DNA of 64,000 nt from contig CAYZYP010000001.1 of the NCBI GenBank assembly GCA_964482695.1, positions 68,143-132,142 on the forward strand, read 5' to 3'. Each line of letters starts with the position of its first letter. Position 1 is the first letter of the stretch. The notes under the pieces are model-generated. The model was given only the letters and a program-made list of their open reading frames with translations, searched no databases and was not told the origin of the DNA. Position numbers and translations under genes: made by a program. Shown piece by piece: positions 1-22,935 of the stretch. Source of the stretch: an uncultured Gammaproteobacteria bacterium (GTDB taxonomy: Bacteria; Patescibacteriota; Patescibacteriia; Magasanikbacterales; GWA2-37-8).

Positions 1-1419
1 CCTTTTGTTTACGAACGATTTACTGCCGGTCATATTGGCGTGCTTTTGAGTTACGCGTTACTGCCCTTGGTTATCAAGGCTATTTTTACAGCTTTTGAAG
101 AAAAAACTTGGCGACAAGCGATTTGGGCGGTTTTTTTGTGGACACTACAGATTATTTTTTCCGCGCATTATTTAGTAATAACAGGTGTGTGTGTTGGGGT
201 TATTTTTTTAGTTTATTTAATAGCTAGTTTGTTGTTACATTATAATTGTCATTCCGAGGAGGAGCATAGCGACGACGAGGAATCTCTGTCCAAATTGAGA
301 CAGAGATCCTTCGCTCCGCTCAGGATGACAGAGTCTAGGAGAGTTACTTTTAGCATTGGGATATTATCTATTTTTTTAAAACTTATTCTTTTACTCCTTA
401 TTTTTAACTCTTTTTGGCTTGTTCCCACTTTTTTACTACACCAAAATCCAACCACAGAATTTAGCAATTCTCATTTTACCGCCTATAAGTCATCACCAGA
501 CCAACATTATGGTTTGTTAACAAATTTAGCTGGCATGTATGGTTTTTGGCGCGAACGCACTTCGGAAGGGGAGTTTGTTTTAGCAAAAAATAATTTACCA
601 ATTTGGCCGTTGTTTTTTGTTATTTTTTTAATATCTATTTGTTTTGGTGTTAAGAATTTGCTTAAAGAAAAAAAATACGTTTACATGGGCTCATTGTTAG
701 TTATGGGCGCGTTAGCCGTGGTATTATCGGTGGGGTCGCAGAACGGTTTTGTCGGTTCTGTTAATAATTTTATTTTTACCTATATTCCAGCTTTTAGCGG
801 TTTGCGCGAAAGCCAAAAGTTTATTTCAATTTTAGTTTTTGTTTATTCAGTATTTATCGCTTATGGTTTGTATTGTTTTAGAAGCAATAAGTTGATGTAT
901 TATTTTTTTATCACTATTATTTTTGCCAATATTTTTATCTATAGTTATCCCTTATTTTGGGCCGCCAATAATCAAATTGTGTCTCAACCATATCCGGCTT
1001 CTTTCCAAAAAGCTAAAGAGGTCTTTGATCAAGATAAAAGCGACTACCAAATACTTATTTTGCCTTGGCATATGTATGTTATTGGCCATTCTTTAACTCC
1101 AAAATATACCATAGTTGACCCGGCGCCTAAATATTTTTATCCAAGCAAAATAATAGCTTGTCAAGACGAAGAAGCAGGGTATGTTAAAAATATTTCTCCT
1201 CAACAAACTGCCATTAGAAATTTACAAAACAGCACTAGTTCTACGGTTTGGCTATCATTTTTACGTGATGCCGGTATAAAATATATTTTTATTTCCAAAG
1301 TAACTGACACCATAAAGCATGGTTTTGATTACGATACCTTTTTAGAGGATAAAAATTTTAAGAAAATAGTGGAAGATAATTACGCTGTATTGTTTGTGAA
1401 CCACGAATTTTTACACTAA
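1..1419 (+). CDS. Polytopic membrane protein of unknown function, 5'-partial (the reading frame is open to the window start). It carries an in-frame palindromic element at 247-330.
   Basis: Frame 1 has no stop from nt 1. There are many hydrophobic segments. The peptide 'CHSEEEHSDDEESLSKLRQRSFAPLRMTE' is encoded by the repeat element. Confidence 0.5.
   Translation, partial: PFVYERFTAGHIGVLLSYALLPLVIKAIFTAFEEKTWRQAIWAVFLWTLQIIFSAHYLVITGVCVGVIFLVYLIASLLLHYNCHSEEEHSDDEESLSKLRQRSFAPLRMTESRRVTFSIGILSIFLKLILLLLIFNSFWLVPTFLLHQNPTTEFSNSHFTAYKSSPDQHYGLLTNLAGMYGFWRERTSEGEFVLAKNNLPIWPLFFVIFLISICFGVKNLLKEKKYVYMGSLLVMGALAVVLSVGSQNGFVGSVNNFIFTYIPAFSGLRESQKFISILVFVYSVFIAYGLYCFRSNKLMYYFFITIIFANIFIYSYPLFWAANNQIVSQPYPASFQKAKEVFDQDKSDYQILILPWHMYVIGHSLTPKYTIVDPAPKYFYPSKIIACQDEEAGYVKNISPQQTAIRNLQNSTSSTVWLSFLRDAGIKYIFISKVTDTIKHGFDYDTFLEDKNFKKIVEDNYAVLFVNHEFLH
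247..330. repeat. Nested palindromic element copy A. Termini are tgtcattccgagg...caggatgaca with an internal gaatctctgtc...gacagagatcc palindrome. It is inserted in frame in a CDS.
   Basis: Direct sequence comparison with copies at 21331-21415, 22282-22372 and 10079-10184. Confidence 0.8.
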
Positions 1420-1470
1420 TTTACACAAATATGGAATTTAATTTGTGATTAGTGTAAATTCGTGGTTCAG
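1396..1470. terminator. Long inverted repeat (gaaccacgaatttttacactaa / ttagtgtaaattcgtggttc) overlapping the stop of the first CDS. Putative terminator or structured element.
   Basis: Arms of ~22 bp seen in the sequence. Confidence 0.4.
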
Positions 1471-1571
1471 AGTTATCCACAGGGCTGTTTTTAGCAGGGT
1501 ATACATATATTTTAAAAAATGTTATAATAATTTTAGAAAAATTTTAATTATTTAATTTTAACTTCAAGAGT

Positions 1572-2627: not shown

Positions 2628-2654
2628 AAAATACAATACAAATACAAAAAAACA

Positions 2655-2692
2655 CCTCGACTTTAATCGGGGTGTTTTAGTATCCCTTTAAC
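2655..2692 (+). terminator. Rho-independent terminator-like hairpin (cacctcga...tcggggtg followed by a T-run).
   Basis: Hairpin plus U-tract downstream of the stop at 2627. Confidence 0.45.
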
Positions 2693-2738
2693 TTATTTTT
2701 AATATCTGTTATAATATCAACGCTTTAATTATATTTTT

Positions 2739-3998
2739 ATGTTAAAAAAGATTATTTTTCTTTCTTGTTTTTTACTTCTATTATTTTTTGCTACTTCGGT
2801 TTCCGCCAGCGAAGCTTCGGTGCAAATTTCTCCATTACAGGGTACTTACAACGAAGATCAGACATTCACAGTTGATGTTTGGGTGAAAACCGGGGGCTAT
2901 TCTGTGGGGCAGGTAAGCGCTGATATTAGTTTTTCCGAAGATTTTTTACAGGTTGTTAGCATAAGTTTAGCCGATTATTTTAAATCAACAAATGAATATG
3001 GCGTTAATAATTTTGACAATGAAAAGGGTAATATCCACGTAGAAGGAGAAATAGAGAATGGTTTAAAAGAAGACGGCAGTTTGGCGACAATTACTTTTAA
3101 AGTTAAAAAAAGTGGCACTGCCAGAATAGATCTTTTTAAAACCACGCGTGTTCTTACTACCGATAATTTAACCATACCTTTACGCACAGCCGACAGTGTA
3201 TATCAATTAGAAAAAAAAGGCACAACTAGCGTGAATATCCAGCAAGTTAATATCACCGAAACAGACGAGGGTGGTTACAAAGGAATTTCTAATAGTATTA
3301 GCACTTCTTCTATTTTAATAGGCCAGCCACCACAGTTATTTGGCAAGACAGATACGCCAAATGCTTTAATAGAGTTTGATGTTGATCAAGGCCTGGCGAT
3401 AGGCAAAACAACCGCGGATCAACAGGGTGATTGGAATTGGTCTTTGTCCAGAAGATTATTGCCAGGTATATACGCGGTAAAAATTACAGCTACCAACCCG
3501 CAGGACAAAAAAAAGAAGGAAACAGACTGGCAAGAAGTAGAAATGAGAATTATGGATGTTTCGCGTCAGTTGTATAAAATTATAGTAGTTTCTTCTACAT
3601 TGCCAAAAAATGTTTATCCTAATTCTAAATTACCTATTAATTTTAAAATTATTAATTTAGGCAACGCTAGTAGTACTAACCAATTAAAAAATACTTTTAG
3701 AGTTTCTTATTACATAGAAGACCCCAGCAGAAGCCTTATTTACGATAATCAAGAAGATGTAGTATTTACCGGCCAAGACGTAACTTTAACCAGAGAGATA
3801 GAAATATCCAAAGAAGCGGTAAAAGGCAATTATACTATTTATGCCACTATGAAGTTGGATGATGAATTGGTCAGTATGGATTCAGCGACGTTTAAAGTGC
3901 GGGCAAGCACGTATAAGTATCTGATTATTGGCGTGGCGTTAGTAGCAGTATTTTTCGTGGGTTGGGCAGTGTTTAGAAAGTTAAAAACAAGAAAATAA
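2739..3998 (+). CDS. Cell-surface protein with a signal peptide, an N-terminal cohesin-like domain, an Ig-like middle region and a C-terminal transmembrane anchor.
   Basis: The signal peptide ends 'SVSASEA'. 'QISPLQGTY..FTVDVWV.TGGYSVGQVSADISF..DFLQVV' is a cohesin-like beta-sandwich motif. The C-terminus 'YLIIGVALVAVFFVGWAVFRKLK' is a TM helix followed by a basic tail. Confidence 0.5.
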   Translation: MLKKIIFLSCFLLLLFFATSVSASEASVQISPLQGTYNEDQTFTVDVWVKTGGYSVGQVSADISFSEDFLQVVSISLADYFKSTNEYGVNNFDNEKGNIHVEGEIENGLKEDGSLATITFKVKKSGTARIDLFKTTRVLTTDNLTIPLRTADSVYQLEKKGTTSVNIQQVNITETDEGGYKGISNSISTSSILIGQPPQLFGKTDTPNALIEFDVDQGLAIGKTTADQQGDWNWSLSRRLLPGIYAVKITATNPQDKKKKETDWQEVEMRIMDVSRQLYKIIVVSSTLPKNVYPNSKLPINFKIINLGNASSTNQLKNTFRVSYYIEDPSRSLIYDNQEDVVFTGQDVTLTREIEISKEAVKGNYTIYATMKLDDELVSMDSATFKVRASTYKYLIIGVALVAVFFVGWAVFRKLKTRK

Positions 3999-4016
3999 CA
4001 ATAATATTTAGCATAA

Positions 4017-4052
4017 ACGTCTGGTCTTGTGCCGGACGTTTTTTTTTGATAG
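4017..4052 (+). terminator. Rho-independent terminator (acgtctggtc..ccggacgt followed by T9).
   Basis: GC hairpin followed by nine T residues. Confidence 0.6.
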
Positions 4053-4081
4053 AATAAAGAGGATAATTAATTAAAATTTTT

Positions 4082-5083
4082 ATGTTGAATCTCGCCATCA
4101 ATGGTTTTGGCCGTATCGGCCGGCAAACTTTCAAAGCCGCGTTTGGTAGAAAAAATATTAAAATAGTTGGTATTAACGATTTAGCAGATACCAAGACTTT
4201 GGCGCATTTATTAAAATACGATACTGCTTATGGCAGTTATGACAAGCAGGTAACTTATGATGAGAAAAATATTATTGTCAATGGAGAAAAATTTCCAGTT
4301 TTTGCGGAAAAAGATCCTAGTAAATTATCTTGGAAAAAATTGTCAGTTGATGTGGTAGTAGAAAGTACAGGCAGGTTTAGGTCAAAAGAAGACGCTGGCT
4401 TGCATTTAAAAGCAGGAGCCAAAAAGGTAATTATCAGTGCCCCGGCCAAAGGTGGCGATGTGCCGACTTATGTTAGAGCGGTTAATTGTGGCAAAGTTAA
4501 AGATGAAAAAGAATTAATAATTAACAACGCTTCTTGTACTACCAATTGTATCGCGCCAATAATGGCGGTTTTAGAAGAAACTTTTGGCATAGAAAAGGCA
4601 ATGATGAGCACAGTCCACGGTTATACCTCTGACCAAAATTTACAGGATGGTCCGCACAAAGATTTGCGTCGGGCGCGCGCGGCCGCGGAAAATATCGTGC
4701 CCACTTCAACTGGCGCGGCCAAGGCAGTAGGCCTAGTGATGCCAAAATTACAGGGTATTTTTGATGGCGTTGCTTTTCGTGTGCCAGTGCCAACATGCTC
4801 ATTATCTGATATTGTGGTTGTTTTAAAGAAAGATGTTACTAAAGAAGAAATAAACAAAGCTTTAACAGACGCCTCTAAAACCGCTCGCTTTAAAGGTGTT
4901 TTAGCGGTAACCGAAGAGCCGCTTGTGTCAGCTGATTTTGTTGGTAATAGTTATTCTTCTACCGTAGATTTAGCGCTTACCAATGTTGTTGGCGGAAATT
5001 TGGTAAAAGTAGTTGCTTGGTATGACAACGAGGTTGGTTATGCACACCGGCTGGTGGAGATGACAGAGTTATTTGTCAAATAA
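4082..5083 (+). CDS. gap: Glyceraldehyde-3-phosphate dehydrogenase, type I.
   Basis: The N-terminus 'INGFGRIGR' is the NAD-binding motif. The active site 'ASCTTNCIAP' is present. The length is 333 aa. Confidence 0.9.
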   Translation: MLNLAINGFGRIGRQTFKAAFGRKNIKIVGINDLADTKTLAHLLKYDTAYGSYDKQVTYDEKNIIVNGEKFPVFAEKDPSKLSWKKLSVDVVVESTGRFRSKEDAGLHLKAGAKKVIISAPAKGGDVPTYVRAVNCGKVKDEKELIINNASCTTNCIAPIMAVLEETFGIEKAMMSTVHGYTSDQNLQDGPHKDLRRARAAAENIVPTSTGAAKAVGLVMPKLQGIFDGVAFRVPVPTCSLSDIVVVLKKDVTKEEINKALTDASKTARFKGVLAVTEEPLVSADFVGNSYSSTVDLALTNVVGGNLVKVVAWYDNEVGYAHRLVEMTELFVK

Positions 5084-5094
5084 AGTAAAAATTT

Positions 5095-6489: not shown

Positions 6490-6497
6490 CAAATATC

Positions 6498-7193
6498 ATG
6501 CCCGCCGATTTTAAATTAGACAAATTCGCCGGTCCTTTGGATTTATTATTGCAATTGATTGAAAAAGAAGAATTAAATATCACGGAAATTGCTTTATCAC
6601 AAATAACCGAGCAGTATTTTGCTTATTTAGACAAATTAGAAAAAAATCGCTCAGAGAAATTAGCTGATTTTTTGGTTATTGCCGCTAAATTAGTTTATCT
6701 AAAATCAAGAAATTTATTGCCATACTTATATCCCGAGGAAGAAGAAGAGGGACTAAGTCTGGCCGATCAATTAAAAATGTATAAGGCATATATTGAGGCC
6801 AGTAAAATTTTAGATGATTTATGGGCAAAGAACAGGATTGCTTATGGCCATTTAGAACCGCTGGTAAAACTCACAGAGTTTGTTGTTCCGGCCAATGCTA
6901 ATTTAGAAAATTTGGCCATAAATTTTCAAACAGTTTTAAAACGTTTGTGTCCCATTTCTCCTTTGCCAAAAGTTACGGTAGATCATTCTATTTCTGTAAA
7001 ACAGACAATAGACAAAATTAGAGCTCTGATTAATTCTAAGAAGTATTTTAATTTTAGTAAATTGTTATCTAATAAAAATAATCGTACGGAAATAATTGTT
7101 AGCTTTTTAGCCTTATTGGAATTATTAAAGAACAAAGTAATAAATATCCAACAAAATTCTTCTTATGGAGAATTAGAAATAGTTAAGTTATAA
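6498..7193 (+). CDS. scpA: Segregation and condensation protein A.
   Basis: The N-terminus 'FAGPLDLLLQLIEKEELNITEIALSQITEQY' is a ScpA signature. It is adjacent to scpB. Confidence 0.8.
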   Translation: MPADFKLDKFAGPLDLLLQLIEKEELNITEIALSQITEQYFAYLDKLEKNRSEKLADFLVIAAKLVYLKSRNLLPYLYPEEEEEGLSLADQLKMYKAYIEASKILDDLWAKNRIAYGHLEPLVKLTEFVVPANANLENLAINFQTVLKRLCPISPLPKVTVDHSISVKQTIDKIRALINSKKYFNFSKLLSNKNNRTEIIVSFLALLELLKNKVINIQQNSSYGELEIVKL

Positions 7194-7229
7194 AGTAATT
7201 TTTAACTTTATAAATCTTATAACTTTAAT

Positions 7230-7766
7230 ATGTCAATTTTGTCAAAATTGGAGTCTATCTTGTTTGTCGCTTCTAAACCATTGTCAATTAAAAAAATCGT
7301 TGCTGTTCTAAAAGTAAGCAAAGAAGAGTCCGAGGCCGTGCTTAAAAATTTGCGAGAAAAATACAATCAGCCTGATTCTGGCGTAATATTAATGCAAAAC
7401 AACGATGATTGGCAATTAGTATCAAATCCAGATAATCGCGATGTGGCGGAAAACTTTTTAAAGGCAGAAGTTTCTGGCGAGCTCACTCGTCCGCAGCTAG
7501 AAACGTTGACCGTAATTTCTTATTGTGGGCCAATAACCAAACCAGAATTAGAACAGATCCGCGGAGTTAATTGTGGTATTATTTTACGCAATTTACTTTT
7601 ACGTGGTTTGATAAAAGAAGTAGAAAAACCAGAAAGTTTATTATCGGAATTTGAGGTGACTATGGATTACCTGCGCCATTTAGGAATTAGCAGTTTATCC
7701 GAGTTACCGGATTATGATAAATTACATAAACACCCATACATAGAAGAAATTAAAAAAGGTGATTAG
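7230..7766 (+). CDS. scpB: Segregation and condensation protein B.
   Basis: 'LESILFVASKPLSIKKI' and a winged-helix tandem architecture. It lies immediately downstream of scpA. Confidence 0.75.
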   Translation: MSILSKLESILFVASKPLSIKKIVAVLKVSKEESEAVLKNLREKYNQPDSGVILMQNNDDWQLVSNPDNRDVAENFLKAEVSGELTRPQLETLTVISYCGPITKPELEQIRGVNCGIILRNLLLRGLIKEVEKPESLLSEFEVTMDYLRHLGISSLSELPDYDKLHKHPYIEEIKKGD

Positions 7767-7771
7767 CTATT

Positions 7772-8797: not shown

Positions 8798-8864
8798 AAA
8801 GAGCCTGGAAAGAGCGCAAAAATCGTGGTATAATTCAGTTATAAAGTTTATAACTTTTTAGTTT

Positions 8865-10043
8865 ATGCTTCGTACTATTAAGCAAATTAAAAATCTAAAA
8901 GGCAAACGTGTTTTATTGCGCGTTGATTTTAACGTGCCAATAAAAAATGGCCGAGTAAAAGATGACTTTAAAATTAAAAAGAGCTTGCCGACAATTGAAT
9001 ATCTTTTGGAAAAAGGCGCTAAGATTATTTTAATGAGCCATTTAGGACGTCCTAAGGGTAAGGTTGTGCCTGAACTTAGATTAACAGCGCCGGCAAAAAG
9101 ATTGTCAGAATTATTACATAGAAAAATAAAAAAATTACAAATATCAACAGGCAATGAAGTTGTCAAAAAAATAAATAAAATGAAACCAGCTGATATACTA
9201 TTTTTAGAGAATATTCAATTTGAACCAGGAGAGATTGCCAAAGATGAAAAGCTGGCTAAAGAGTTGGCATCTTATGGCGATTATTTTGTAAACGAGTGTT
9301 TTGCTCAATCGCATCGTGATTATGCTTCTATATCTAAAATCGCGCGATATATACCGGCTTGCGCGGGTTTGTTGTTAGCAGAAGAGGTCGCAGGGCTTAG
9401 TAAAGTTATTTCTAAACCTAAAAAACCGTTTGTGGTAGTTTTAGGCGGCGCCAAATTGGAAACAAAAATTCCGATTTTAGAGAAATTGTTACCAATGGCC
9501 GATCATATTTTGATTGGCGGAGAGATTTTTAATACTTATTTGTGGGCTAAAGGCAACCAAGTTGGTGCTTCCCTGATTGATAAGGAATTTAAAAAGCAAG
9601 TGTTATTATATGGTAGTAAAAAGAAAATAATTATGCCAGTTGATGTAATAGTTGGCAAAGAAGACGGCAAAGAAGCAAAAGCGCTAGCTATTACCGAAAT
9701 TAATAGATTAAAATCAAATATTGGTATATATGACATTGGTCCGATGACCATTAAGTTATTTGCTAAATATATTAAAAAAGCCAATACATTGATTTGGAAT
9801 GGGGCTATGGGATATTTTGAACAGCACCCTTATCAATATGGGACTAATTCTATCGCTCGGCTCGTAGCGTCGCGATCCAAAGGCAAGGCGTATGGCGTTT
9901 GTGGTGGCGGCGAAACAGTAGAAGTTTTGCGTAAATTAAATTTAATATCTGACATAGATTTAGTTTCAACCGGTGGTGGCGCGATGTTGGAATTTTTAAG
10001 CGGTAAGAAGTTGCCGGGTGTAGAGGCGGTTGTAAAATCATAA
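8865..10043 (+). CDS. pgk: Phosphoglycerate kinase.
   Basis: 'KRVLLRVDFNVP' and 'LMSHLGRPKG' motifs. The length is 392 aa. Confidence 0.9.
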   Translation: MLRTIKQIKNLKGKRVLLRVDFNVPIKNGRVKDDFKIKKSLPTIEYLLEKGAKIILMSHLGRPKGKVVPELRLTAPAKRLSELLHRKIKKLQISTGNEVVKKINKMKPADILFLENIQFEPGEIAKDEKLAKELASYGDYFVNECFAQSHRDYASISKIARYIPACAGLLLAEEVAGLSKVISKPKKPFVVVLGGAKLETKIPILEKLLPMADHILIGGEIFNTYLWAKGNQVGASLIDKEFKKQVLLYGSKKKIIMPVDVIVGKEDGKEAKALAITEINRLKSNIGIYDIGPMTIKLFAKYIKKANTLIWNGAMGYFEQHPYQYGTNSIARLVASRSKGKAYGVCGGGETVEVLRKLNLISDIDLVSTGGGAMLEFLSGKKLPGVEAVVKS

Positions 10044-10049
10044 AATTAT

Positions 10050-10218
10050 ACTAATTACCTTGAATTGCAAAACTCGTCTTGTCATCCTGAGTGTAGCGGA
10101 GCGAAACGAAGGATCTTTCTGTTAGAGCGCTTCTTAGCACGGAAAGATTCTTCCCCTTCGCTTCGCTCAGGGTCAGAATGACAGTAAAAATGATAGTTTC
10201 GTAATTCAAGGTAATTAT
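10050..10218. repeat. Intergenic nested palindrome. Outer arms are taattaccttgaattgcaaaac / gtttcgtaattcaaggtaatta. They enclose copy D (10079-10184) of the tgtcatcc...ggatgaca element family.
   Basis: Seen directly. The internal sequence gtcatcctgag..gcgaaacgaaggatctttctg...cagaatgacag is homologous to the in-frame copies. Confidence 0.75.
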
Positions 10219-10325
10219 TGATATTTTAGATCAATCCCGAAGTGATCCTCTAGGGATTAAAATAATTTTTAATTAATTAGAACAAACTTGCTAATTTACG
10301 CAAATTGTTCTTTAAGGGAGGTTTT

Positions 10326-11189: not shown

Positions 11190-11209
11190 ATCTCATAATT
11201 TTTGTATTT

Positions 11210-12457: not shown

Positions 12458-12469
12458 ATTATCTAAATT

Positions 12470-14017
12470 ATGCAAAGAAATAAAACCACACTTTTAATAA
12501 TCATGGACGGTTGGGGTTTAACAAAACCAAATAAAGGCAATCCAATTACCCCGAAAACCGCGCCAAATTATTTTAATTGGTTAAAAAAATATCCAAATAC
12601 GAAATTAAAAGCCAGTGGCAAAGACGTTGGTTTGTTTACGGGTGAAGACGGAAACAGTGAAGCTGGTCATTTAAATTTAGGTGGAGGGAGAATCGTAAAA
12701 CAAGACGCGTTGTATATTTCTGATGCCATAAAAGACGGCACATTTTTTAAAAATAACGCTTTTAGCCAAGCTATTCATCATGTAAAAAAATATAATACCG
12801 CCGTTCATTTAATGGGGTTGTTATCAAATCATAACAGCGCGCATTCTTGTCCAGAGCACCTGTATGCTTTGTTGGATTTATTTCATAAAAATAATATAGT
12901 TCAGGTTTATTTACATCTTTTTACCGATGGCCGTGATTCTGGCCAGCATGACGCTACCAATCATTTAAAAAAATTAGAAAAACATTTGCGCGCTAATCAA
13001 GAGATCGCTACTGTCATGGGGCGGTTTTACGCCATGGACAGAAACAAACAATGGCGCAGAACTCAACAAGCGTACGAGGCCATGGTTAAAGGCTTAGGTT
13101 GTACTGCTACTAGCGCCGAAGAAGCTTTGGCGCAATCATACAATAGGAATACCACCGACGAATTTATCTGCCCAACCGTAATTATCAAAGACAACAAGCC
13201 GGTCGCGAAAATTAAAGATAATGACGCTATTTTCTTTTTTAACTTGCGCAGCGACAGGGCGCGGCAGTTAACCAAAGTATTTGTTCAGCCGAATTTTAAA
13301 AAAATGAATCAAGGCGCGTTTAACAGAATTCATTTACCAAAGAATACACGTTTTGTGGCCATGACTGATTTTGGCCCTGATTTGCCTGGTGTTTTAGCCG
13401 CTTTTCCTAGCCGTGATGTGGAAAATAGCTTAACACAGATATTATGTCCACGCCGTCAACTATATATTGCTGAATCCGAAAAATACGCTCATGTTACCTA
13501 CTTTTTTAATGGTGGTTATGCTCAGCATTTTTGTGATGAATCTTGGGTAAAAATTGAATCGCCAAACGTGGAAAGTTATGATCAGAAACCAGAAATGAGC
13601 GCTAAAAAAGTGGCTGATTATTTAATTGGCGCTATTGAATCACAAACTTATGATTTTATTTTAGCCAATTTCGCCAATCCGGATATGGTAGGGCACACAG
13701 GAAATTTTTCTGCCGGCGAAATAGCGGTAAATACGGTAGATAAAGAAATAGAAAGGGTAATCAAAAGCTTAGTTAATTGTAATGGTCAAGGTATAATAAC
13801 CGCGGATCATGGCAATATAGAAGAAATGATAAATCCTAGGACAGGAGAAATAGACACTGAACATTCGGCTAATCCAGTACCTTTTATTTTAATAAATTCA
13901 TCAGTTAAAACAAACAAGCATTTACCAACAGGTAAACTAGGAGATGTAGCCCCAACGATTTTGAAATTAATGGCGATAGAAAAGCCAAGAGAAATGAATG
14001 GGAGAGCGTTGGTGTAA
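12470..14017 (+). CDS. gpmI: 2,3-bisphosphoglycerate-independent phosphoglycerate mutase, paralog 1.
   Basis: 'LLIIMDGWG' and the catalytic Ser in 'GNSEAGHLNLG', plus 'ADHGN'. The length is 515 aa. Confidence 0.85.
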   Translation: MQRNKTTLLIIMDGWGLTKPNKGNPITPKTAPNYFNWLKKYPNTKLKASGKDVGLFTGEDGNSEAGHLNLGGGRIVKQDALYISDAIKDGTFFKNNAFSQAIHHVKKYNTAVHLMGLLSNHNSAHSCPEHLYALLDLFHKNNIVQVYLHLFTDGRDSGQHDATNHLKKLEKHLRANQEIATVMGRFYAMDRNKQWRRTQQAYEAMVKGLGCTATSAEEALAQSYNRNTTDEFICPTVIIKDNKPVAKIKDNDAIFFFNLRSDRARQLTKVFVQPNFKKMNQGAFNRIHLPKNTRFVAMTDFGPDLPGVLAAFPSRDVENSLTQILCPRRQLYIAESEKYAHVTYFFNGGYAQHFCDESWVKIESPNVESYDQKPEMSAKKVADYLIGAIESQTYDFILANFANPDMVGHTGNFSAGEIAVNTVDKEIERVIKSLVNCNGQGIITADHGNIEEMINPRTGEIDTEHSANPVPFILINSSVKTNKHLPTGKLGDVAPTILKLMAIEKPREMNGRALV

Positions 14018-14034
14018 AATTATAATTTTCAAAT

Positions 14035-15612
14035 ATGTCTTATCGCCCTGTAGTATTAATAATTTTAGATGGTTGGGGAATAGCGCCAGCTAGCGAAGGT
14101 AACGCCATAACCGAAGCAAGAACACCAAATTTTCTCAAGTATTTGCGCGATTATCCAACCATGACAATACACGCCTCTGGGAATGAGGTTGGTTTATTAT
14201 TCGGGGAAATGGGAAATTCAGAGGTAGGCCATTTAAATATTGGCGCCGGGCGTGTTTATTACCAAACTTGCCCGCGCATTAATAAAGAAATTAGTGATGG
14301 TACATTTTTCAAAAATGAAGCTCTGCTTAAGGCAGTTAATAAAGCAAAAGAAAACAAATCGCAATTACATTTAATTGGTTTATTAAGCTCTGGCAATGTT
14401 CATTCTAGCAATGATCATCTTTATGCTTTGCTAGAGTTGTGCAAACAACACAAATTAACTGATAATGTATTTATTCATGCTATTTTAGATGGCCGTGATT
14501 GTGTTTATAATTCTGGCAAGGAATTTATTAAAGATTTACAGGAAAAAATAAAGCAATTACGTATTGGCAAAATAGCCACCTTGTCTGGTCGCTATTATGC
14601 CATGGACAGAGATAATCGTTGGGAACGAACAGAAAAAGCTTATCAAGCGATTGCCGAGGGTAAGGCCGAAAGAACTGGTGAAAATCCGCTTAAAATTATA
14701 GAAGAATCATACAATAAAAAGAACTATGATGAAGAATTTATCCCTACGGTTATCACCAAAGATGGTGCTCCAATAACTACTATTAAAAATGGCGACGCGG
14801 CGATTTTTTTTAATTTTCGTCCCGATCGAGCGCGGCAATTAACAAAAGCTTTTGTTGTTCCTAGTTTTGAAAAATTTAATAAAAATTTCTTATCAGATTT
14901 AACCTTTGTTACTCTAAGTGAATATGAAAAACAATTACCCGCCACAGTCGCTTTCGCGCCAATGGTGGTGCATAATTGTTTGGCCGAAGTAATTAGTAAA
15001 GCCGGTAAGTGGCAATTACACATCGCAGAAACAGAAAAATACGCTCATGTCACTTTTTTCTTGAATGGCACTGTAGAGGAGCCATTTCGGGGCGAGGAAC
15101 GTTTACTGGTGCCATCACCAAGAGTTTCTAGCTATGATCAAAAGCCAGAGATGTCAGCATCGGAAGTAACTAAATTAGTTAATAAAGCTATTGACGATGG
15201 CAAATACGATTTTATAGTTGTAAATTTTGCTAATCCAGATATGGTTGGCCATACCGGGGTTTTGGAAGCTGGTATAAAGTCGTGCGAAGTAACAGATAAA
15301 TGTTTGGGAAATGTGGTAGAAAATGTCTTAGCTCACGGCGGTGTGGCTTTGGTAACAGCCGACCATGGCAACGCAGAAGAAATGGTTAATTTACAGACAG
15401 GCGAGATAGACAAAGAACATTCTACCAACCCAGTGCCATTTTTAGTAATAAGCAAAGATTATATGGGGCAGGCAGGGTCAGGTGGCGATGCTCCAGAAGG
15501 GGATTTAAGTCTATTGCAACCAGTAGGTATGTTAGCCGATGTGGCGCCGACTGTTTTAAAATTAATGGGTATTGATAAACCAGAAGAAATGACCGGGCAG
15601 GCGTTGATATAA
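14035..15612 (+). CDS. gpmI: 2,3-bisphosphoglycerate-independent phosphoglycerate mutase, paralog 2.
   Basis: 'VLIILDGWG', 'GNSEVGHLNIG' and 'ADHGN'. The length is 525 aa. Confidence 0.85.
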   Translation: MSYRPVVLIILDGWGIAPASEGNAITEARTPNFLKYLRDYPTMTIHASGNEVGLLFGEMGNSEVGHLNIGAGRVYYQTCPRINKEISDGTFFKNEALLKAVNKAKENKSQLHLIGLLSSGNVHSSNDHLYALLELCKQHKLTDNVFIHAILDGRDCVYNSGKEFIKDLQEKIKQLRIGKIATLSGRYYAMDRDNRWERTEKAYQAIAEGKAERTGENPLKIIEESYNKKNYDEEFIPTVITKDGAPITTIKNGDAAIFFNFRPDRARQLTKAFVVPSFEKFNKNFLSDLTFVTLSEYEKQLPATVAFAPMVVHNCLAEVISKAGKWQLHIAETEKYAHVTFFLNGTVEEPFRGEERLLVPSPRVSSYDQKPEMSASEVTKLVNKAIDDGKYDFIVVNFANPDMVGHTGVLEAGIKSCEVTDKCLGNVVENVLAHGGVALVTADHGNAEEMVNLQTGEIDKEHSTNPVPFLVISKDYMGQAGSGGDAPEGDLSLLQPVGMLADVAPTVLKLMGIDKPEEMTGQALI

Positions 15613-16758: not shown

Positions 16759-16815
16759 AATGAACTGGGCATTTTATCAATATTTGGCTAAACAGTCAAT
16801 AGATATAGGTGTGGA

Positions 16816-19587
16816 TTGATTTTTTGGAGTAAATCTAGTAAAATACAGCCATTGTCTATAGATATTATGCCAGAATTAGCCAAAGCTTACGAGCCGCAAA
16901 AATACGAAGATAGAATATATAAACGCTGGGAAGAAAGCGGGTTTTTTAATCCGGATGTTTGTGTTGAGCATGGTGTTTGTAAAAAAGACGCCAATTCTTT
17001 TACTATTATTTTGCCACCACCTAATGTTACCGGTACTTTGCATATGGGCCATGCCGCCATGTTGGCCATAGAAGATGTCATGGTTCGTTATCACCGTATG
17101 AAGGGCGAAAAAACACTGTGGCTCCCGGGCACGGATCACGCGGCTATTGCCACGCAAACCAAAGTAGAAAAACTTTTGATAGCTAAGGGGATGAAAGATC
17201 CGCGTCAAGAATTGGGCAGGGAAAAATTTTTGAGTGAAGTGGATAAATTTGCCAAAGAATCTCACGATATTATAGTTAATCAAACAAAAAAAATTGGTTC
17301 ATCTTTGGATTGGAGCAGGGAAGCGTTTACATTGGATGAAAAGAGAAATTTAGCGGTTAGAACTGTTTTTAAGAAAATGTATGATGATGGTTTGATTTAT
17401 CGCGGTTACCGGATTGTTAATTGGTGTCCACGGTGTCATTCTACTTTGGCTGATGACGAGGTGGAGTATAAACCTGCTAAAACAAAATTGTATTGGATAA
17501 AATACGGTCCTTTTATTTTGGCGACAACTCGTCCAGAAACAAAATTGGGCGATACGGCAGTCGCGGTGCATCCGAAAGATAAAAGATATAAAAATATGGT
17601 AGGTAAGAAGTATATGATACCTGGGGTGTTGGGTGAATTTGAAGTCATAGTGGTGGCCGACGAAGCAGTGGATATGGAATTTGGCACGGGAGTCATTAAA
17701 GTTACGCCATACCATAGTTTTGCTGATTACGATATAGCTCAGAGACAACATTTAGTAGGCAAACAGATTATTGATGAGGATGGTAAAATGATGGCCAATT
17801 GTGGCAAGTATGCTGGCATGAAAACTGAAGAGGCGCGTAAGGTGATCGCAGAAGATATGGAAAAAATGGGTTTAATAGATCGCGTAGATGAAAATTATGA
17901 AAACAGTTTATCTGTTTGTTATCGTTGTGGGCATACAATAGAGCCAATTCCTTCTCGTCAATGGTTTATAGATGTTAATAAAGAATTTAAAATAGCAGAT
18001 AGTAAACTGCAAAATATTAAAAAAGGGCAGAAAGTGACTTTGAAAAAGTTAATGCAAGTAGTGGTAAAAAGCAATCAGATAGAAATTATTCCAGATAGGT
18101 TTAATAAAACATATTTTAGTTGGATAAATAATTTACGCGATTGGTGTATATCTAGACAAATTTGGTATGGTCACAGAATCCCAGTGTGGTATAAAGATGA
18201 AGAAATTTTTGTTGGTACAGAAGCGCCCGCGGAAGATGGTTGGAAACAAGATCCAGATACTTTAGACACTTGGTTTAGCTCTGGGCTTTGGACTTTTTCT
18301 ACTCTTGGTTATCCGGATTTAAATTCAACAGATTTAAAAAATTATCACCCAACCTCGGTTTTAGAAACTGGTTATGACATCTTATTTTTCTGGGTGGCTA
18401 GAATGATACTCATGACAACTTACGTTTTAGGCGACATTCCTTTTAAAAAAGTATATTTGCATGGATTGGTTCGAGATGAAAAAGGGCAAAAAATGAGCAA
18501 GTCCTTGGGCAACGTGATTGACCCATTGGATATGATAAAAAAGTATGGCGCGGATGCCACCAGATTGTCATTACTTGTTGGTACCACGCCAGGCAATGAC
18601 ATGAAGCTATCCGAAGAAAAAATCGCTGGTTTTAGGAATTTTGCCAATAAGTTGTGGAATATTAGTAGATTTATTTTATTAAATATAGATAAGCCACAAA
18701 GTAAATTAGATAGCCCAATACCCAGAACTTTTTTTGATAGATGTATATTGCACCAATTAAACAAACAAGCATCATTTGTCACAAACGATATAGAAGAATT
18801 TAGGCTCTCCGCCGCGGGTGAAAGACTGAGAGCTTTTACTTGGAATATTTTAGCTGATTGGTATTTGGAGATAGCTAAGATAGAGGGAAATAAATCTGAA
18901 ATATTAAATTATATTTTAAATAGTCTGCTTAAATTATGGCATCCATTCATGCCTTTTGTAACCGAAGCGATTTGGCAAGAGATTTATGGGAAAGAAAATA
19001 TATTAATGATCCAGTCTTGGGTTGATGTATTTAATGTTGAAACTACTGTTAATAATAAAAATGAACCAATTGCAAGATGGCCGAAAGTTGGTAGCCAGCA
19101 GGCATTGGAGATGTTTGATTTGGATGAAGGGTGGAATATTATTATAGGAGTAATTGGACATATTAGAAAGTTGCGCGCTGATTATAAAATAGAGCCAGCC
19201 AAAAAATTAAACGTGGTAATTAACGCTGGCAAAAAGATCGGCTTATTAAAAGAAAACGAAGCAGTTATCAAAGGTTTGGCCAGATTAGAGAGTGTTAAGA
19301 TAGAAGAAAAAATAGCTAAGCCAAAAAATTCCATTGGCTTTGTTGAAAGTGGTATAGAGGTGTATATTGATCTAGAGGGGGTTGTTGATGCGGGAAAAGA
19401 ACAGAAAAGGTTAGAAAAAGAAATAGTGGAATTAAAAAAATATACTGGTAATTTAGAAAAAAAATTAACTAATAAAGAATTTATTAAAAACGCGCCAAAG
19501 GAAATTATAGAAAAAGAAAAACAAAAGTTAAGCGAAGCCCAAGAAAAGTTAGAAAAATTACAAAAACAATTAACAGATTTAAAATAG
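16816..19587 (+). CDS. valS: Valyl-tRNA synthetase. The true start is probably near 16867.
   Basis: HIGH motif 'PPNVTGTLHMGHA', 'KMSKSLGN' and a C-terminal coiled coil. The length is ~920 aa. Confidence 0.9.
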   Translation: MIFWSKSSKIQPLSIDIMPELAKAYEPQKYEDRIYKRWEESGFFNPDVCVEHGVCKKDANSFTIILPPPNVTGTLHMGHAAMLAIEDVMVRYHRMKGEKTLWLPGTDHAAIATQTKVEKLLIAKGMKDPRQELGREKFLSEVDKFAKESHDIIVNQTKKIGSSLDWSREAFTLDEKRNLAVRTVFKKMYDDGLIYRGYRIVNWCPRCHSTLADDEVEYKPAKTKLYWIKYGPFILATTRPETKLGDTAVAVHPKDKRYKNMVGKKYMIPGVLGEFEVIVVADEAVDMEFGTGVIKVTPYHSFADYDIAQRQHLVGKQIIDEDGKMMANCGKYAGMKTEEARKVIAEDMEKMGLIDRVDENYENSLSVCYRCGHTIEPIPSRQWFIDVNKEFKIADSKLQNIKKGQKVTLKKLMQVVVKSNQIEIIPDRFNKTYFSWINNLRDWCISRQIWYGHRIPVWYKDEEIFVGTEAPAEDGWKQDPDTLDTWFSSGLWTFSTLGYPDLNSTDLKNYHPTSVLETGYDILFFWVARMILMTTYVLGDIPFKKVYLHGLVRDEKGQKMSKSLGNVIDPLDMIKKYGADATRLSLLVGTTPGNDMKLSEEKIAGFRNFANKLWNISRFILLNIDKPQSKLDSPIPRTFFDRCILHQLNKQASFVTNDIEEFRLSAAGERLRAFTWNILADWYLEIAKIEGNKSEILNYILNSLLKLWHPFMPFVTEAIWQEIYGKENILMIQSWVDVFNVETTVNNKNEPIARWPKVGSQQALEMFDLDEGWNIIIGVIGHIRKLRADYKIEPAKKLNVVINAGKKIGLLKENEAVIKGLARLESVKIEEKIAKPKNSIGFVESGIEVYIDLEGVVDAGKEQKRLEKEIVELKKYTGNLEKKLTNKEFIKNAPKEIIEKEKQKLSEAQEKLEKLQKQLTDLK

Positions 19588-19590
19588 TAT

Positions 19591-20793
19591 ATGAAAATAA
19601 ATACCGACAATCAAAAAATAGAAGAAGTTTTAACTCGTTCAATTGACACAATTTATCCAAGTAAAAAAGATTTTACAGAGATGTTAAAATCCGGCAAACA
19701 GTTACGTGTATACATGGGTATAGATCCAACTGCTACTTATGCTCATTTGGGCCACGCTACTAACTATATTATTTTGCGTCGCCTCCATGAATTAGGGCAT
19801 AAAATAATTGTTTTAATAGGCGATTTTACCGCTATGATTGGCGACCCGAGCGATAAAAGTTCTCTGCGTCAACGCCTTACCAAAGAACAAGTTCAAGAAA
19901 ACATGAAAACATTTAAAGCGCAAATAGGAAAAATTTTAGATTTTAATAATAAAGAAAATCCAATTGAATTAGCGTTTAATTCTGATTGGTTGGCGAAATT
20001 AACTTTTAGTGACGCCGTTGAATTGGCTTCTCATTTCACTGTCCAACGCATGTTAGAAAGAGATAATTTTGAAAAAAGAATAAAAGAAGAAAAGCCTTTG
20101 TATGTTCATGAATTTTTTTATCCTTTAATGCAAGGTTATGATTCTGTGGCTCTAAATGCCGATGTAGAAATAGGTGGCACAGATCAGACTTTTAATATGT
20201 TAGCTGGCCGTACTTTGGTTAAGGCTTATCAAAACAGAGAGAAGGTGGTTATTACCACGACTCTTTTGGAAAACCCGGTTACTGGGGAAAAATTAATGAG
20301 TAAGAGTTTGGGTACTGGCATTGGTTTAGACGAAACGCCAAATGATATGTTTGGCAAAACAATGGCTTTGCCGGACGAAGCCATAATACAGGTATTTATA
20401 GATTGTACTTATTTAAAAATGACAGAAATTAAAGAAATGGAAAAAGCTTTAAAAAGTGGTGCCAATCCGCGTGATTTAAAATTAAAGTTGGCTTATGAAA
20501 TAGTGAAAATGTATCATTCGTCAGAAGACGCTGAAAAAGCTAAAGAATATTTTATTAGCACCTTTAGTAAAAAAGAAATACCAACAGAAATACCAGAAAT
20601 CAAGCCAACAAATTATGATATTATTACAGTGCTGACCGAAGCCAAAATTTGCGCCAGTAAAACCCAAGCACGACAGGTAATAGCGCAAGGCGGAGTAAAG
20701 ATAAATGATAAAAAGATAAATGATATCGCCACTAAAGTTAGCACTGGCGATGTGATACAAAAGGGGAGTAGATGGTTTGTAAAGGTAAAATAA
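19591..20793 (+). CDS. tyrS: Tyrosyl-tRNA synthetase with a C-terminal S4 domain.
   Basis: 'GIDPTATYAHLGH' is the HIGH-type motif. 'KMSKSLGT' and a C-terminal S4-like domain ('QARQVIAQGGVKINDKKI') are present. Confidence 0.8.
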   Translation: MKINTDNQKIEEVLTRSIDTIYPSKKDFTEMLKSGKQLRVYMGIDPTATYAHLGHATNYIILRRLHELGHKIIVLIGDFTAMIGDPSDKSSLRQRLTKEQVQENMKTFKAQIGKILDFNNKENPIELAFNSDWLAKLTFSDAVELASHFTVQRMLERDNFEKRIKEEKPLYVHEFFYPLMQGYDSVALNADVEIGGTDQTFNMLAGRTLVKAYQNREKVVITTTLLENPVTGEKLMSKSLGTGIGLDETPNDMFGKTMALPDEAIIQVFIDCTYLKMTEIKEMEKALKSGANPRDLKLKLAYEIVKMYHSSEDAEKAKEYFISTFSKKEIPTEIPEIKPTNYDIITVLTEAKICASKTQARQVIAQGGVKINDKKINDIATKVSTGDVIQKGSRWFVKVK

Positions 20794-20799
20794 TTTTCT

Positions 20800-22641
20800 A
20801 TGTCTCTAATTAAAGCAGAAATTATAAAAATATTAAACAAAGCTGGCGTAAAAGGCGAATTTGAATTAGTAGTTCCTCCAAAATCAGAGATGGGTGATTT
20901 TTCGTTTGCCTGTTTTGAACTAGCAAAAGCAGAGAAGAAAAATCCGGTAGAAGTGGCAAAAGAAATAGTAAAAACCGTAGGGGCAGGTCGTGACCTGCCC
21001 GTACAAATATTAGAAAAAATCACAGCCATTGGCCCATACGTCAATTTCTATTTAAACAGTGCCGCAATAGCCGAAGTGGTATTAAAAGAAGTTAAAGATA
21101 AAAATTTTGGTAAAAGTAAAATTGGCGATAAGAAGAAAATAATGGTGGAATTCGCGCATCCTAACACTCACAAAGCGTTTCATATTGGCCATTTACGCAA
21201 CGCGATTACTGGCGAAAGCATGGTGCGAATTTTGGAAAATGCCGGTTACAAAGTAGTTAGGGCAAATTATCAAGGCGACGTGGGAATGCATATCGCGAAA
21301 TGTTTGTGGGGAATTTGGCATAATAATTTTTGTCATTCCGAGGAGCGAAGCGACGAGGAATCTCTGTCTCAAAAAATGTTAAGACAGAGATCCCTCGCTG
21401 CGGCTCGGGATGACAAATTGGAAACCATTGACGACAAAGTAAAATTTTTGGGTGAAGCGTACGTGCGAGGGAGTACGGCATTTGAAGAAGATGAAAAAGT
21501 TAAAGAGGAAATTATAGAAATAAACGATAAAATATATTCACAAGATAAAAGTATTAAAGAATTATACAAAACAACTAGAAAATGGAGTTTGGCATATTTT
21601 GATAAAATATATAAGCGGTTGGGGACGCGTTTTGATCGTTTATATTTTGAATCAGAAACATTTAAAAAAGGCAAAGAAATTGTCTTAAAATTTTTATCCA
21701 AAGGCGTGTTTATTGTTGGTGAAGGCGGGGCAATTGTTTTTGAAGGTTCCAAATACGGCTTGCACGACCGAGTGTTTGTCAATAGCAAAGGTTTTCCAAC
21801 TTATGAAGCAAAAGATTTGGCTTTGGCGGAATTGCAATTTAAAGAATATAAGCCAGAGATGATTTTGCATTTGGTGGCCAAAGAGCAGACCGAATATTTT
21901 AAAGTAATGTTTAAGTCTTTGGAATTTACTTTCCCCAAAAGCAAAGAGCGAGAAAAACATTTAGAATATGGCTGGGTAAGTTTAAAAGAAGGCAAAATGA
22001 GTTCACGTACCGGGCAAGTGGTATTAGGAGAATGGTTGCTTGATGAAGTAAAAAATAAAATTGCTGAAATAATGAAAGATAATAAATTTTCTGATAAAGA
22101 AAAAGTGATAGAAAAAATAGCTATCGCGGCAGTAAAGTATTCCATGTTAAAAACTGGCGTTAGAAATGATATTAAATTTGATTTTAATGAATCAATTAGT
22201 TTAACAGGTGATTCCGGACCGTATCTACTGTATATCGTGGCGAGAATAAATAGCATTTTGGCAAAAAGTCAAAATGTGGATTGTCATTCCGAACCCCGAC
22301 TAAGTCGGGGTGAGGAAGCTCTGCCCCAAAAAACATTAAGACAGAGATCCCTCGCTGTGGCTCGGGATGACAAGAAAACATTGTTAGAAAAAAGTCTTTT
22401 GTTGCACTTGTCTGAATTTTCAACAATAACAAAATTAGCGGCCGAGAGTTTTGACCCATCTAAAATCGCTAAATACTTGTTGGATTTAGCGCAAAAATTT
22501 AATGAATTTTACAGCCAATGTCCAATACTCCAAGCCGAAGAAGAAACACAAAAGTTTCGGTTACGGTTAATTAAAGAGGTTAGGCAGGTAATGGAAAGGG
22601 GATTATATTTATTGGGGATAGAGACGGTAAAAGAAATGTAA
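20800..22641 (+). CDS. argS: Arginyl-tRNA synthetase containing two in-frame palindromic-element insertions.
   Basis: 'AHPNTHKAFHIGHLRNA' is the HIGH motif and there is a C-terminal DALR-like anticodon-binding region. Removing the two ~29-aa inserts (CHSEE...RDDK) gives a typical ~555 aa ArgRS. Confidence 0.85.
   Translation: MSLIKAEIIKILNKAGVKGEFELVVPPKSEMGDFSFACFELAKAEKKNPVEVAKEIVKTVGAGRDLPVQILEKITAIGPYVNFYLNSAAIAEVVLKEVKDKNFGKSKIGDKKKIMVEFAHPNTHKAFHIGHLRNAITGESMVRILENAGYKVVRANYQGDVGMHIAKCLWGIWHNNFCHSEERSDEESLSQKMLRQRSLAAARDDKLETIDDKVKFLGEAYVRGSTAFEEDEKVKEEIIEINDKIYSQDKSIKELYKTTRKWSLAYFDKIYKRLGTRFDRLYFESETFKKGKEIVLKFLSKGVFIVGEGGAIVFEGSKYGLHDRVFVNSKGFPTYEAKDLALAELQFKEYKPEMILHLVAKEQTEYFKVMFKSLEFTFPKSKEREKHLEYGWVSLKEGKMSSRTGQVVLGEWLLDEVKNKIAEIMKDNKFSDKEKVIEKIAIAAVKYSMLKTGVRNDIKFDFNESISLTGDSGPYLLYIVARINSILAKSQNVDCHSEPRLSRGEEALPQKTLRQRSLAVARDDKKTLLEKSLLLHLSEFSTITKLAAESFDPSKIAKYLLDLAQKFNEFYSQCPILQAEEETQKFRLRLIKEVRQVMERGLYLLGIETVKEM
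21331..21415. repeat. Nested palindromic element copy B, in frame within argS.
   Basis: tgtcattccgaggagcgaagcgacgaggaatctctgtct...agacagagatccctcgctgcggctcgggatgaca. Confidence 0.85.
22282..22372. repeat. Nested palindromic element copy C, in frame within argS, with an extra internal hairpin ccccgactaagtcgggg.
   Basis: tgtcattccgaaccccgac...gacagagatccctcgctgtggctcgggatgaca. Confidence 0.85.
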
Positions 22642-22934: not shown

Positions 22935-22935
22935 T

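Follow-up and report, generated by a model that had tools for sequence, protein, structure and literature searches.

How does one short palindromic DNA element come to lie twice within an arginyl-tRNA synthetase gene (argS), once within a membrane protein gene and once between genes, all in 64 kb? The DNA in question, here called the window, is the whole stretch of 64,000 nt that we analysed, from contig CAYZYP010000001.1 of a Magasanikbacterales genome (positions 68,143 to 132,142, forward strand). A prediction made from its letters alone (the original prediction) had seen in it a selfish palindrome that keeps the reading frame, as the Rickettsia palindromic elements (RPEs) do. The core of that reading is supported by our analysis: a selfish-looking palindrome occurs in frame within genes, at surface loops that tolerate it, and behaves as RPEs do. 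We consider it likely that the four copies are a non-autonomous mobile palindrome of the repetitive extragenic palindromic (REP) type, an inverted dimer of a TGTC-tagged stem-loop unit that would form a new family of the CGTC/TGTC superfamily, one of the two REP superfamilies (GTAG- and CGTC-tagged) defined by Di Nocera, De Gregorio & Rocco (2013; PMC3733652).

Four copies in the window, three of them in frame

The copies, each with a left and a right arm around a central stem-loop, and the two genes that host them are as follows.

247-330, 84 bp: copy A, in frame in a multi-pass membrane protein gene, in a short loop between two hydrophobic helices; encodes CHSEEEHSDDEESLSKLRQRSFAPLRMT
252-282 (TTCC..GGAA) and 307-325 (TCCT..AGGA): left and right arms of copy A, with the central stem-loop CTCTGTCC/GAGACAGAG between them
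1-1419, + strand: open reading frame (ORF) hosting copy A, a membrane protein without Pfam hit, its frame open to the first base of the window
10080-10183, 104 bp: copy D, intergenic, 36 nt 3' of the pgk stop codon; arms 10085-10113 and 10148-10178
20800-22641, + strand: argS, arginyl-tRNA synthetase (ArgRS), 613 aa with all three Pfam domains, host of copies B and C
21331-21415, 85 bp between tags, 87 bp with flanking T and A: copy B, in argS; arms 21336-21360 and 21391-21410
22282-22372, 91 bp, 93 bp with flanking T and A: copy C, in argS; arms 22287-22317 and 22348-22367

All four copies stand where the original prediction had placed them, with the ends of copy D refined to 10080-10183. When at most one mismatch is allowed, the 12-nt terminus TGTCATYCYGAG matches the window eight times, exactly at both ends of the four copies, whereas shuffles give an expectation of 0.29 and none of 100 shuffles reached eight. 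TGTC precedes all eight arms. A structure-aware scan of the 64 kb for the arm motif recovered the eight arms and added a single match at 6731, probably due to chance (shuffle mean 0.64), and therefore the window holds four copies of the TGTC-tagged palindrome and no more. RNA folding of copies A-D gives -37.6 to -52.1 kcal/mol (z -5.4 to -7.1 against shuffles), and DNA folding, run for copies B and D, gives z of -6.0 and -5.4; the G+C content of the window is 33-42%.

The copies are not uniform inside. Over 62 nt, the right halves of copies B and C share 90% identity, while the central stem of copy D is unlike that of copies A-C in sequence. Of the inner gaatctctgtc/gacagagatcc palindrome, which had been described as common to all four, copies A and B have a clear version, the left side of copy C a degraded one, and copy D a different sequence. 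The hairpin that had been described as an addition in copy C is a longer form (ACCCCGAC-TAA-GTCGGGGT, -11.4 kcal/mol, z -4.6) at the tip of its left arm, substituting there for the GCGNAGC tip, and so is no extra feature but a variant of the small hairpin present at that position in every arm.

As had been claimed, copies A, B and C lie inside ORFs (40-1419 for copy A, 20800-22641 for the two copies in argS) and are read in one common element frame, giving CHSEEEHSDDEESLSKLRQRSFAPLRMT, CHSEERSDEESLSQKMLRQRSLAAARDDK and CHSEPRLSRGEEALPQKTLRQRSLAVARDDK, with no stop codon in the host reading frame. Copy B makes up ArgRS residues 178-206, in the catalytic domain after the HIGH-region helix, and copy C makes up residues 495-525, where the catalytic domain joins the DALR anticodon-binding domain. 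Removing both leaves ~553 aa, close to the ~555 aa of the original prediction and within the 550-600 aa of the homologues, the named ones of which belong to Candidatus Magasanikbacteria, Patescibacteria or Parcubacteria and are at most 66% identical. These names place the host bacterium in the Candidate Phyla Radiation. Alignment with orthologues shows the inserts to be lineage-specific, their peptides being found in none of 119 ArgRS homologues, and to sit in loops of variable length: the first site has 30 residues here and 7-8 in most homologues, the second 32 here and 7-35 in homologues. At the same time, an AlphaFold2 model (52 sequences) is confident overall (mean pLDDT, the predicted local distance difference test score, 87.7; pTM, the predicted template modelling score, 0.88), and its only long segments with pLDDT below 50, residues 178-188 and 494-521, are the inserts. 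Other ArgRS orthologues have other REP-type peptides in these loops, VIPAKAGI.. in P0009 and ..ARLRMT in P0118, the latter being the right end of the TGTC-tagged palindrome family read in another frame, and P0021 has ..PAVARNDN at a third site, which suggests that a few permissive ArgRS loops have been struck repeatedly and independently.

The peptide of copy A was found in none of 37 aligned homologues of the membrane protein, and its site is again a loop that varies in length among them. These homologues align from their residue ~113-116, and the N-terminus of the window protein may lie outside the window. The closest homologue, P0121 (53% identity), has SHPDQVSANDWEYKKNNYRI at the copy-A site (residues 83-110 of the window protein), which might, speculatively, be what remains of an earlier insertion by a related element.

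Could the peptides be an ancestral protein module, or the copies an artefact of assembly? They are similar to one another and of low complexity, and the source is a metagenome assembly. However, homologues of both proteins lack them (0 of 119 and 0 of 37), the same DNA lies between genes as copy D and is read in three frames elsewhere, and the 1,842-nt argS, both inserts included, has no mismatch across JGI 3300009296, ENA ERZ909578 and ERZ909575, the last two being different runs of groundwater project PRJNA292723. Identity at every base in three independent assemblies disposes of the artefact that the original prediction had named, and we see virtually no chance that either version of this explanation, already refuted, is right.

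Anatomy and covariation of the family

We scanned one genome per species with a pattern that required TGTC and the termini, allowed 79-109 bp from tag to tag and left two Y (pyrimidine) positions free, and obtained at least 120 loci, where we estimate that about one would be expected by chance. TGTC in these external copies is fixed by the search pattern and so is uninformative there, the arms in the window alone being informative about it. Over 259 distinct copies, the likeness extends well beyond the required termini, with the arms conserved and the centre not. The left part of the family plan is TGTC, then ATYCY-GA-(GC-GNA-GC or longer GC hairpin)-GA-RGRAT (R, purine), and the rest is CT, a variable central stem-loop, AG, ATYCY-TC-...-TC-RGRAT and GACA. 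The element is closed by a stem of 4-5 bp, TGTC(A)/(T)GACA, and its central stem-loop is lineage-specific.

The stem of the unit has nine positions, A-T-Y-C-Y-G-A-G-C / G-C-G-A-R-G-R-A-T, of which T6:A24, C8:G22, G12:C18 and C13:G17 are conserved and Y7:R23 and Y9:R21 covary; stem positions 6-7 are G.A/A.G and not Watson-Crick, and A5:Y25 is unpaired in 9 of 36 copies. RGRAT is followed by C-T-N, paired into the central stem (C26:G37 in 36/36). The canonical loop is a 3-nt GNA, where other copies, copy C among them, carry an extra hairpin of 10-25 nt, and any of the four bases can stand at the N of GCGNAGC (C 19, A 16, T 9, G 8).

Covariation tells which bases are kept paired with which. The Y positions are Watson-Crick to the R positions of their own arm in 207 of 211 left arms and in as many right arms (207/211), but the two termini match one another at both Y positions in just 89 of the 211. 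All four arm variants are found, and the two arms within one element differ in ~58% of copies. For 36 canonical copies we compared two folds: pairing reaches 96.5% in a three-armed structure (a closing stem, an arm hairpin on each side and a central stem), 10 pairs of which have changed on both sides, and 96.6% in a single long hairpin, where the loop N is complementary between arms in 30 of 36; for either structure, none of 500 shuffles reaches the observed values. Both folds are compatible with the family, and the arm-local pairs are the better kept. Searched with Rfam at the gathering threshold, the window gave one tRNA only and four copy-bearing loci gave no match.

Occurrence in genes, between genes and in rRNA

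The family is not confined to this lineage, its termini and arms recurring unchanged in at least 13 phyla (Acidobacteriota, Bacteroidota, Chloroflexota, Planctomycetota, Gemmatimonadota, Verrucomicrobiota, Pseudomonadota, Desulfobacterota, Bacillota, Actinomycetota, Synergistota, Nitrospirota and Patescibacteria). Copies were found on 56 viral contigs more. In most phyla the element is strongly extragenic: at the multi-phylum genome loci (n = 112, mean G+C 0.58), the share of copies within long stop-free frames is 4.5-12.5%, compared to 45-69% for random 90-nt windows from the same loci, and viral contigs behave alike. Plasmids hardly ever have the element: among 72,556 records, none matched copy B and two matched a canonical copy. 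A query of 88 aa made by concatenating the peptides gave nothing at E<=1 against 5.8 billion proteins, where such short modules cannot reach significance.

Contigs like those of the Magasanikbacteria, within the Candidate Phyla Radiation (CPR), differ from this. A metagenome scan for the inner palindrome of the window yielded 54 such CPR-like loci, mostly from 0.1-0.2 µm filter fractions of Hainich groundwater, and 38-46% of the copies in them (n = 39) lie in long frames, compared to 38-58% of random windows; genic depletion is essentially nil in these groundwater contigs. On average 2.31 of the six frames of a CPR-like copy are open, compared to 1.42 when the interior is shuffled, and copies without any open frame number 1 of 58 here and 18 of 134 in other phyla. 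All three frames are used at the left end (CHSE, VIP, LSFR) and two only at the right (..RDDK, ..LGMT), the third being unused because it meets TGA inside ATGACA.

Pfam-confirmed hosts in the CPR-like contigs include LeuRS (leucyl-tRNA synthetase, three copies), a UvrD/PD-(D/E)XK helicase-nuclease, a class I tRNA synthetase of the IleRS/ValRS type, phosphoglucomutase, QueA (two copies), KsgA, ThiI, RsmH (MraW), TruB and a Wzy_C membrane protein. The LeuRS (L141, 5069-8824) is a protein of 1,252 aa with an unusual domain architecture, in which Pfam places NUDIX (421-533) and alpha/beta-hydrolase (632-785) domains between the editing domain (268-429) and the anticodon-binding domain (1100-1215).

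QueA, whose named homologues come from Magasanikbacteria or Patescibacteria, has internal inserts of at least 12 aa in 43 of 120 homologues, with 4-5 hot spots that include those near core positions 130, 180, 292 and 343, and a single hot spot can hold different elements in different frames. The QueA of the genome to which the window belongs (P0276, on the same contig outside the window) has two more in-frame inserts, one, VIPRRRNDDEGSLSGQLRQRSLTSFGMT, from the TGTC-tagged palindrome family and the other, CHPRESGDP..LDSRLRGDD, reading like Rickettsia RPE-6 / CGTC-1. A third, different REP-type dimer occurs in the QueA of L148 (8080-9525, - strand), where it occupies exactly 24 codons between AFASD and RKF when compared with empty orthologues; the inserted DNA reads AGTCATCCTGAATTTATTTCAGGATC..GATTCCGAAACAAGTTTGGAATGAC, and the encoded peptide, SHPEFISGSKRKIPKQVWNDSIDG, resembles RHSELVSGS, a peptide listed for CGTC-2 of Sulfurovum (PMC3733652).

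One copy lies in an rRNA gene. On a groundwater contig (L160), it occupies 3817-3917 within a 16S rRNA gene (3720-4273; Rfam SSU_rRNA_bacteria, 362 bits), with a 140-nt insertion that takes the place of the 3-nt tip of helix 6 (V1). In other bacteria the helix 6 region is known to hold intervening sequences that RNase III excises, and insertions are a familiar feature of CPR rRNA genes. This raises the question of whether the element is removed from RNA, as an intron or an rRNA intervening sequence, with the long hairpin serving as a processing signal and the peptides never appearing in ArgRS. The hairpins are indeed very stable as RNA (-37 to -52 kcal/mol), and the 16S copy replaces a 3-nt loop. 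On the other hand, all three genic copies of the window keep the frame and have no stop, and in CPR-like contigs copies fall within long open frames in the same proportion as random windows do, which means that frame-breaking genic copies must be rare; such a constraint on frame speaks against splicing, which would impose none. Moreover, a cut by RNase III without ligation would destroy the mRNA, and no Rfam intron match was found. We thus hold removal at the RNA level to be very unlikely.

The distribution bears also on whether the element is a structured motif selected by its hosts, for example an RNA 3' stabiliser, a terminator-like hairpin, an RNase III site or a DNA site for gyrase, IHF or polymerase, with the genic copies being incidental. 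Binding by gyrase, IHF or polymerase has reportedly been proposed as a role of E. coli REPs. Conservation of the arms with compensatory changes across at least 13 phyla would fit such a motif, as would the strongly extragenic placement in most phyla, the position of copy D 36 nt after the pgk stop, the pairs of copies that bracket ordinary genes (metK, a tape-measure-like gene) and the mostly downstream position of REPs relative to ORFs, as stated in the part of PMC3733652 on their location. At the same time, the same element occurs in unrelated protein loops and at the tip of a 16S rRNA helix, its presence varies from one close orthologue to the next, shared loops hold different frames and REP families, no T-run lies 3' of it, and neither copy number nor position is conserved. 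Considering both sides, we find host selection of a motif unlikely.

Proposed mobility and relation to known palindromes

Is the element mobile, and if so, by what means? Target-site duplications were not above chance in 246 copies (k = 2-8), and the sole signal in the flanks of these copies is Y at -1 and R at +1. Between the members of thirteen copy pairs lie ordinary genes (among them metK and those for a tape-measure-like protein, a thiolase and an aldehyde dehydrogenase) and no transposase ORF. These results weigh on the view that the element is an ordinary miniature inverted-repeat transposable element (MITE), i.e. a deletion derivative of a DDE-type insertion sequence (IS) that is moved by the IS transposase acting on its terminal inverted repeats. 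Its terminal repeats, which are perfect over 12 nt, its length of ~85-105 bp and its dispersal would all suit a MITE, but neither a duplication beyond chance nor a transposase ORF between copy pairs (13 loci) was seen, arm-local internal pairing is no property of terminal inverted repeats, and identical ends in at least 13 phyla are unlike lineage-specific MITEs, so that we rate a MITE as quite unlikely.

A RAYT partner was sought by phmmer with E. coli RayT and IS608 TnpA against 10,753 ORFs from ~1.9 Mb of loci plus the window. Four of the 10,753 ORFs were RayT-like, none of them in the window or in CPR-like loci, and none was flanked by a TGTC-tagged palindrome, which leaves a RAYT partner unsupported in a search of low power. 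For the RayT-like ORFs of L177 and L182, no TGTC-tagged palindrome lies within ~600 nt. Those of L197 (3640-4860) and L027 (3300-3860), both non-CPR, lie between different REPs of their own, GGGTGCCCCATCCTCCCCGAC..GTCGGGGAGGGTGGG and CCCACCCGTG..CACGGGTGGG, and represent ordinary REP-RAYT units, present alongside the TGTC family in one and the same genome.

Some copies are nested in other palindromes, as in the case of copy D:

10041-10228: AT-rich outer inverted repeat, arms 10041-10074 and 10195-10228 (34 nt, 82% complementary), unrelated to the palindrome family

This outer repeat begins at the pgk stop codon and has copy D in its loop, and the flanks of copy D, when joined, fold at -26.4 kcal/mol, compared to -9 and -12 kcal/mol for controls. 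About a dozen copies, including copy D and the 16S copy, are clearly in loops of unrelated palindromes, and nesting is seen also in L035, L097, L111 (flanks aacaggctgcggaaaaa..), L227, L048 (cagctnt heptad arrays), L103 and L066. A general preference for loops of other hairpins was rejected, mean flank complementarity being no different from that of controls (Wilcoxon p = 0.43).

We favour a REP-type mobile palindrome, for which the following course can be proposed. A trans-acting enzyme would copy the element to new sites, recognising the tagged arm hairpins in single-stranded DNA and leaving no target duplication. Insertion could take place anywhere, and a genic copy would survive only if its length keeps the frame, its frame avoids the TGA in ATGACA and the loop is permissive, after which the ribosome would read it as a hydrophilic peptide of 28-31 residues, such as ArgRS 178-206 and 495-525. 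Selection would keep the element out of genes in most phyla, and the near-random genic placement in Magasanikbacteria-like CPR may be due to small, gene-dense genomes and probably weak selection, as in Rickettsia.

Several points weigh against this account. Isolated canonical arms reach -1.5 to -4.2 kcal/mol in a nearest-neighbour DNA model, no better than shuffles, and the computed minimum-energy fold is the long hairpin. In DNA, both d(GCGNAGC) minihairpins, which have a GNA triloop, and tandem sheared G.A pairs are exceptionally stable, a stability which the nearest-neighbour model misses; given the weak nearest-neighbour energies, the argument for the three-armed fold comes from covariation and from this known stability. 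We found no transposition event, no pair of empty and filled sites at nucleotide resolution and no mobilising enzyme. Tag-to-tag lengths of intragenic copies fall into all classes modulo 3 (84, 85 and 91 in the window; 88, 89, 94, 97 and others elsewhere), which suggests that the inserted unit is not simply the stretch from tag to tag, or that small indels followed insertion; in the window, copies B and C measure 87 and 93 nt when the flanking T and A are included, and copy A measures 84 nt when they are not. Translation of the inserts appears probable from the conservation of the frame. The CPR-like sample was picked with the pattern of one subfamily and includes near-duplicate contigs from replicate samples. 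Finally, the loop, a 3-nt GNA or a long extra hairpin, and the tail, CT, depart from the 4-5 nt loop and CCA tail in the definition of CGTC units (PMC3733652).

A further proposal, which we regard as doubtful, is that the mover is an unrecognised enzyme, neither a RAYT nor a DDE transposase, perhaps with a host or phage function in many phyla, and that the element is a major ongoing source of protein and rRNA expansion segments in CPR. A widespread host or phage enzyme would explain the identical arms in at least 13 phyla and on viral contigs. If this were true, CPR genomes, which are of ~1 Mb and have very few nucleases and recombinases, would be a place to identify the missing machinery that mobilises REPs and RPEs of the CGTC type. 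The question of what mobilises them is one on which the present family bears, as it offers a clearly defined recognition structure supported by covariation, and its CPR hosts have very small genomes that can be searched for the enzyme.

With this family, the presence of palindromic DNA in protein genes, known from Rickettsia, is extended to CPR bacteria, where it looks more pervasive, with two or three copies in single enzymes and with roughly one QueA orthologue in three holding inserts, at a small number of hot-spot loops. Such inserts inflate the lengths of CPR proteins and add spurious "novel" segments to them, can break homology-based annotation and structure prediction, and can disturb analyses of 16S V1.

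Apart from the TGTC-tagged palindrome, the window has other features. In the neighbourhood of argS, a valS-like gene (16816-19587) and a tyrS-like gene (19591-20793) precede it and a PemK toxin gene follows. Downstream of the PemK-like ORF (22897-23304) lies an unrelated intergenic palindrome (23335-23452) with 39-nt arms that are 95% complementary and a 40-nt loop, with a further palindrome at 30406-30473. A tandem 9-nt repeat, CCGGCCACC, runs from 1924 to 2138 with ~16 or more units within ORF 1572-2627, and 2226-2348 and 2508-2630 are internal repeats with 73% identity. ORFs 12470-14017 and 14035-15612 (515 and 525 aa) are adjacent paralogues with DNA stretches that are 71-77% identical, which suggests a tandem gene duplication.

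Among known systems, bacterial MITEs (Correia/NEMIS, ERIC, Nezha and others; PMC10969869) are likewise small, palindromic and dispersed, with occasional in-frame fusions to ORFs, but the family described here has no target-site duplication and no parent IS was found for it. REPINs (Bertels & Rainey 2011, PMC3116915) resemble it in anatomy: they are replicative units of two inverted REPs and a spacer, forming a hairpin of ~100 nt, with no target duplication, and are mostly extragenic, lineage-specific and vertically inherited. Our element shares the inverted REP pair with a spacer hairpin, the lack of target duplication and, in most genomes, the extragenic position. It differs in its tag, which is TGTC and not GTAG or GTGG, in that no RAYT gene flanked by a TGTC-tagged palindrome was found, and in having identical arms across phyla where REPINs are lineage-specific.

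RPE-1 (Ogata et al. 2000, 2002), as summarised in the passage of PMC10969869 devoted to it, is ~150 bp long, restricted to Rickettsia and found in ORFs in about half of the cases; its inserts are predicted to suit the fold of the protein, and it has no known transposase. Common to RPE-1 and the present family are a palindrome placed in frame in unrelated housekeeping genes of a bacterium with a reduced genome and, here too, sites compatible with the fold. Compared by description only, they differ in that our element measures 79-109 bp (the range of the pattern; 84-104 in the window), occurs in many phyla and has a CPR host. The behaviour like that of RPEs, as originally proposed, was thus borne out, and more closely than by analogy, given that the superfamily contains RPE-6 and RPE-4; the behaviour was already known, though not for CPR. 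In the literature on CPR/Patescibacteria with palindromic elements, we found no description of such elements.

The closest likeness is to the CGTC superfamily, taken here from the passages of PMC3733652 that define it and from a supplementary table of peptides. Its unpaired terminal tag, CGTC, is 'changed to TGTC' in many repeats, with CCTC as a further variant, and its units have a stem of 8-9 bp that starts A-T then T-A, a loop of 4-5 nt and an unpaired 3-nt tail, mostly CCA. The units mostly occur as inverted dimers with spacers of 20-100 bp that fold apart or as one hairpin, heterodimers being frequent, and in those passages REPs lie mostly downstream of ORFs, and the CGTC repeats are mostly intergenic, have no associated transposase and, where intragenic, encode 20-30 aa in proteins that include tRNA synthetases, TruB and UvrD helicases. 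The tag, the start and the ~9-position length of the stem, the inverted dimer, the intragenic copies and the lack of a transposase are all found here. CGTC-1 is R. conorii RPE-6 and Neisseria dRS3, CGTC-4 is RPE-4, and the table gives CHSRESGDP, VIPAKAGI, SFPRKRES and DSRFRGND for R. conorii and a dimer VIPAKAGIS..EIPAFAGMT for Sphingomonas wittichii, peptides with which the ends of our element agree in all three frames (CHSE.., VIP.. and LSFR.. on the left, ..ARDDK and ..LGMT on the right). At the same time, unlike in the superfamily as described there, the stem is broken by a tandem G.A step, the spacer is always its own stem-loop, and in CPR-like bacteria there is no genic depletion, with one copy even in a 16S rRNA gene; the spread over at least 13 phyla compares with five reported in these passages for the whole superfamily. 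We therefore file the element as a putative new family within the CGTC/TGTC superfamily and not as CGTC-1 itself, with encoded peptides as the basis of comparison with CGTC-1 to CGTC-4.

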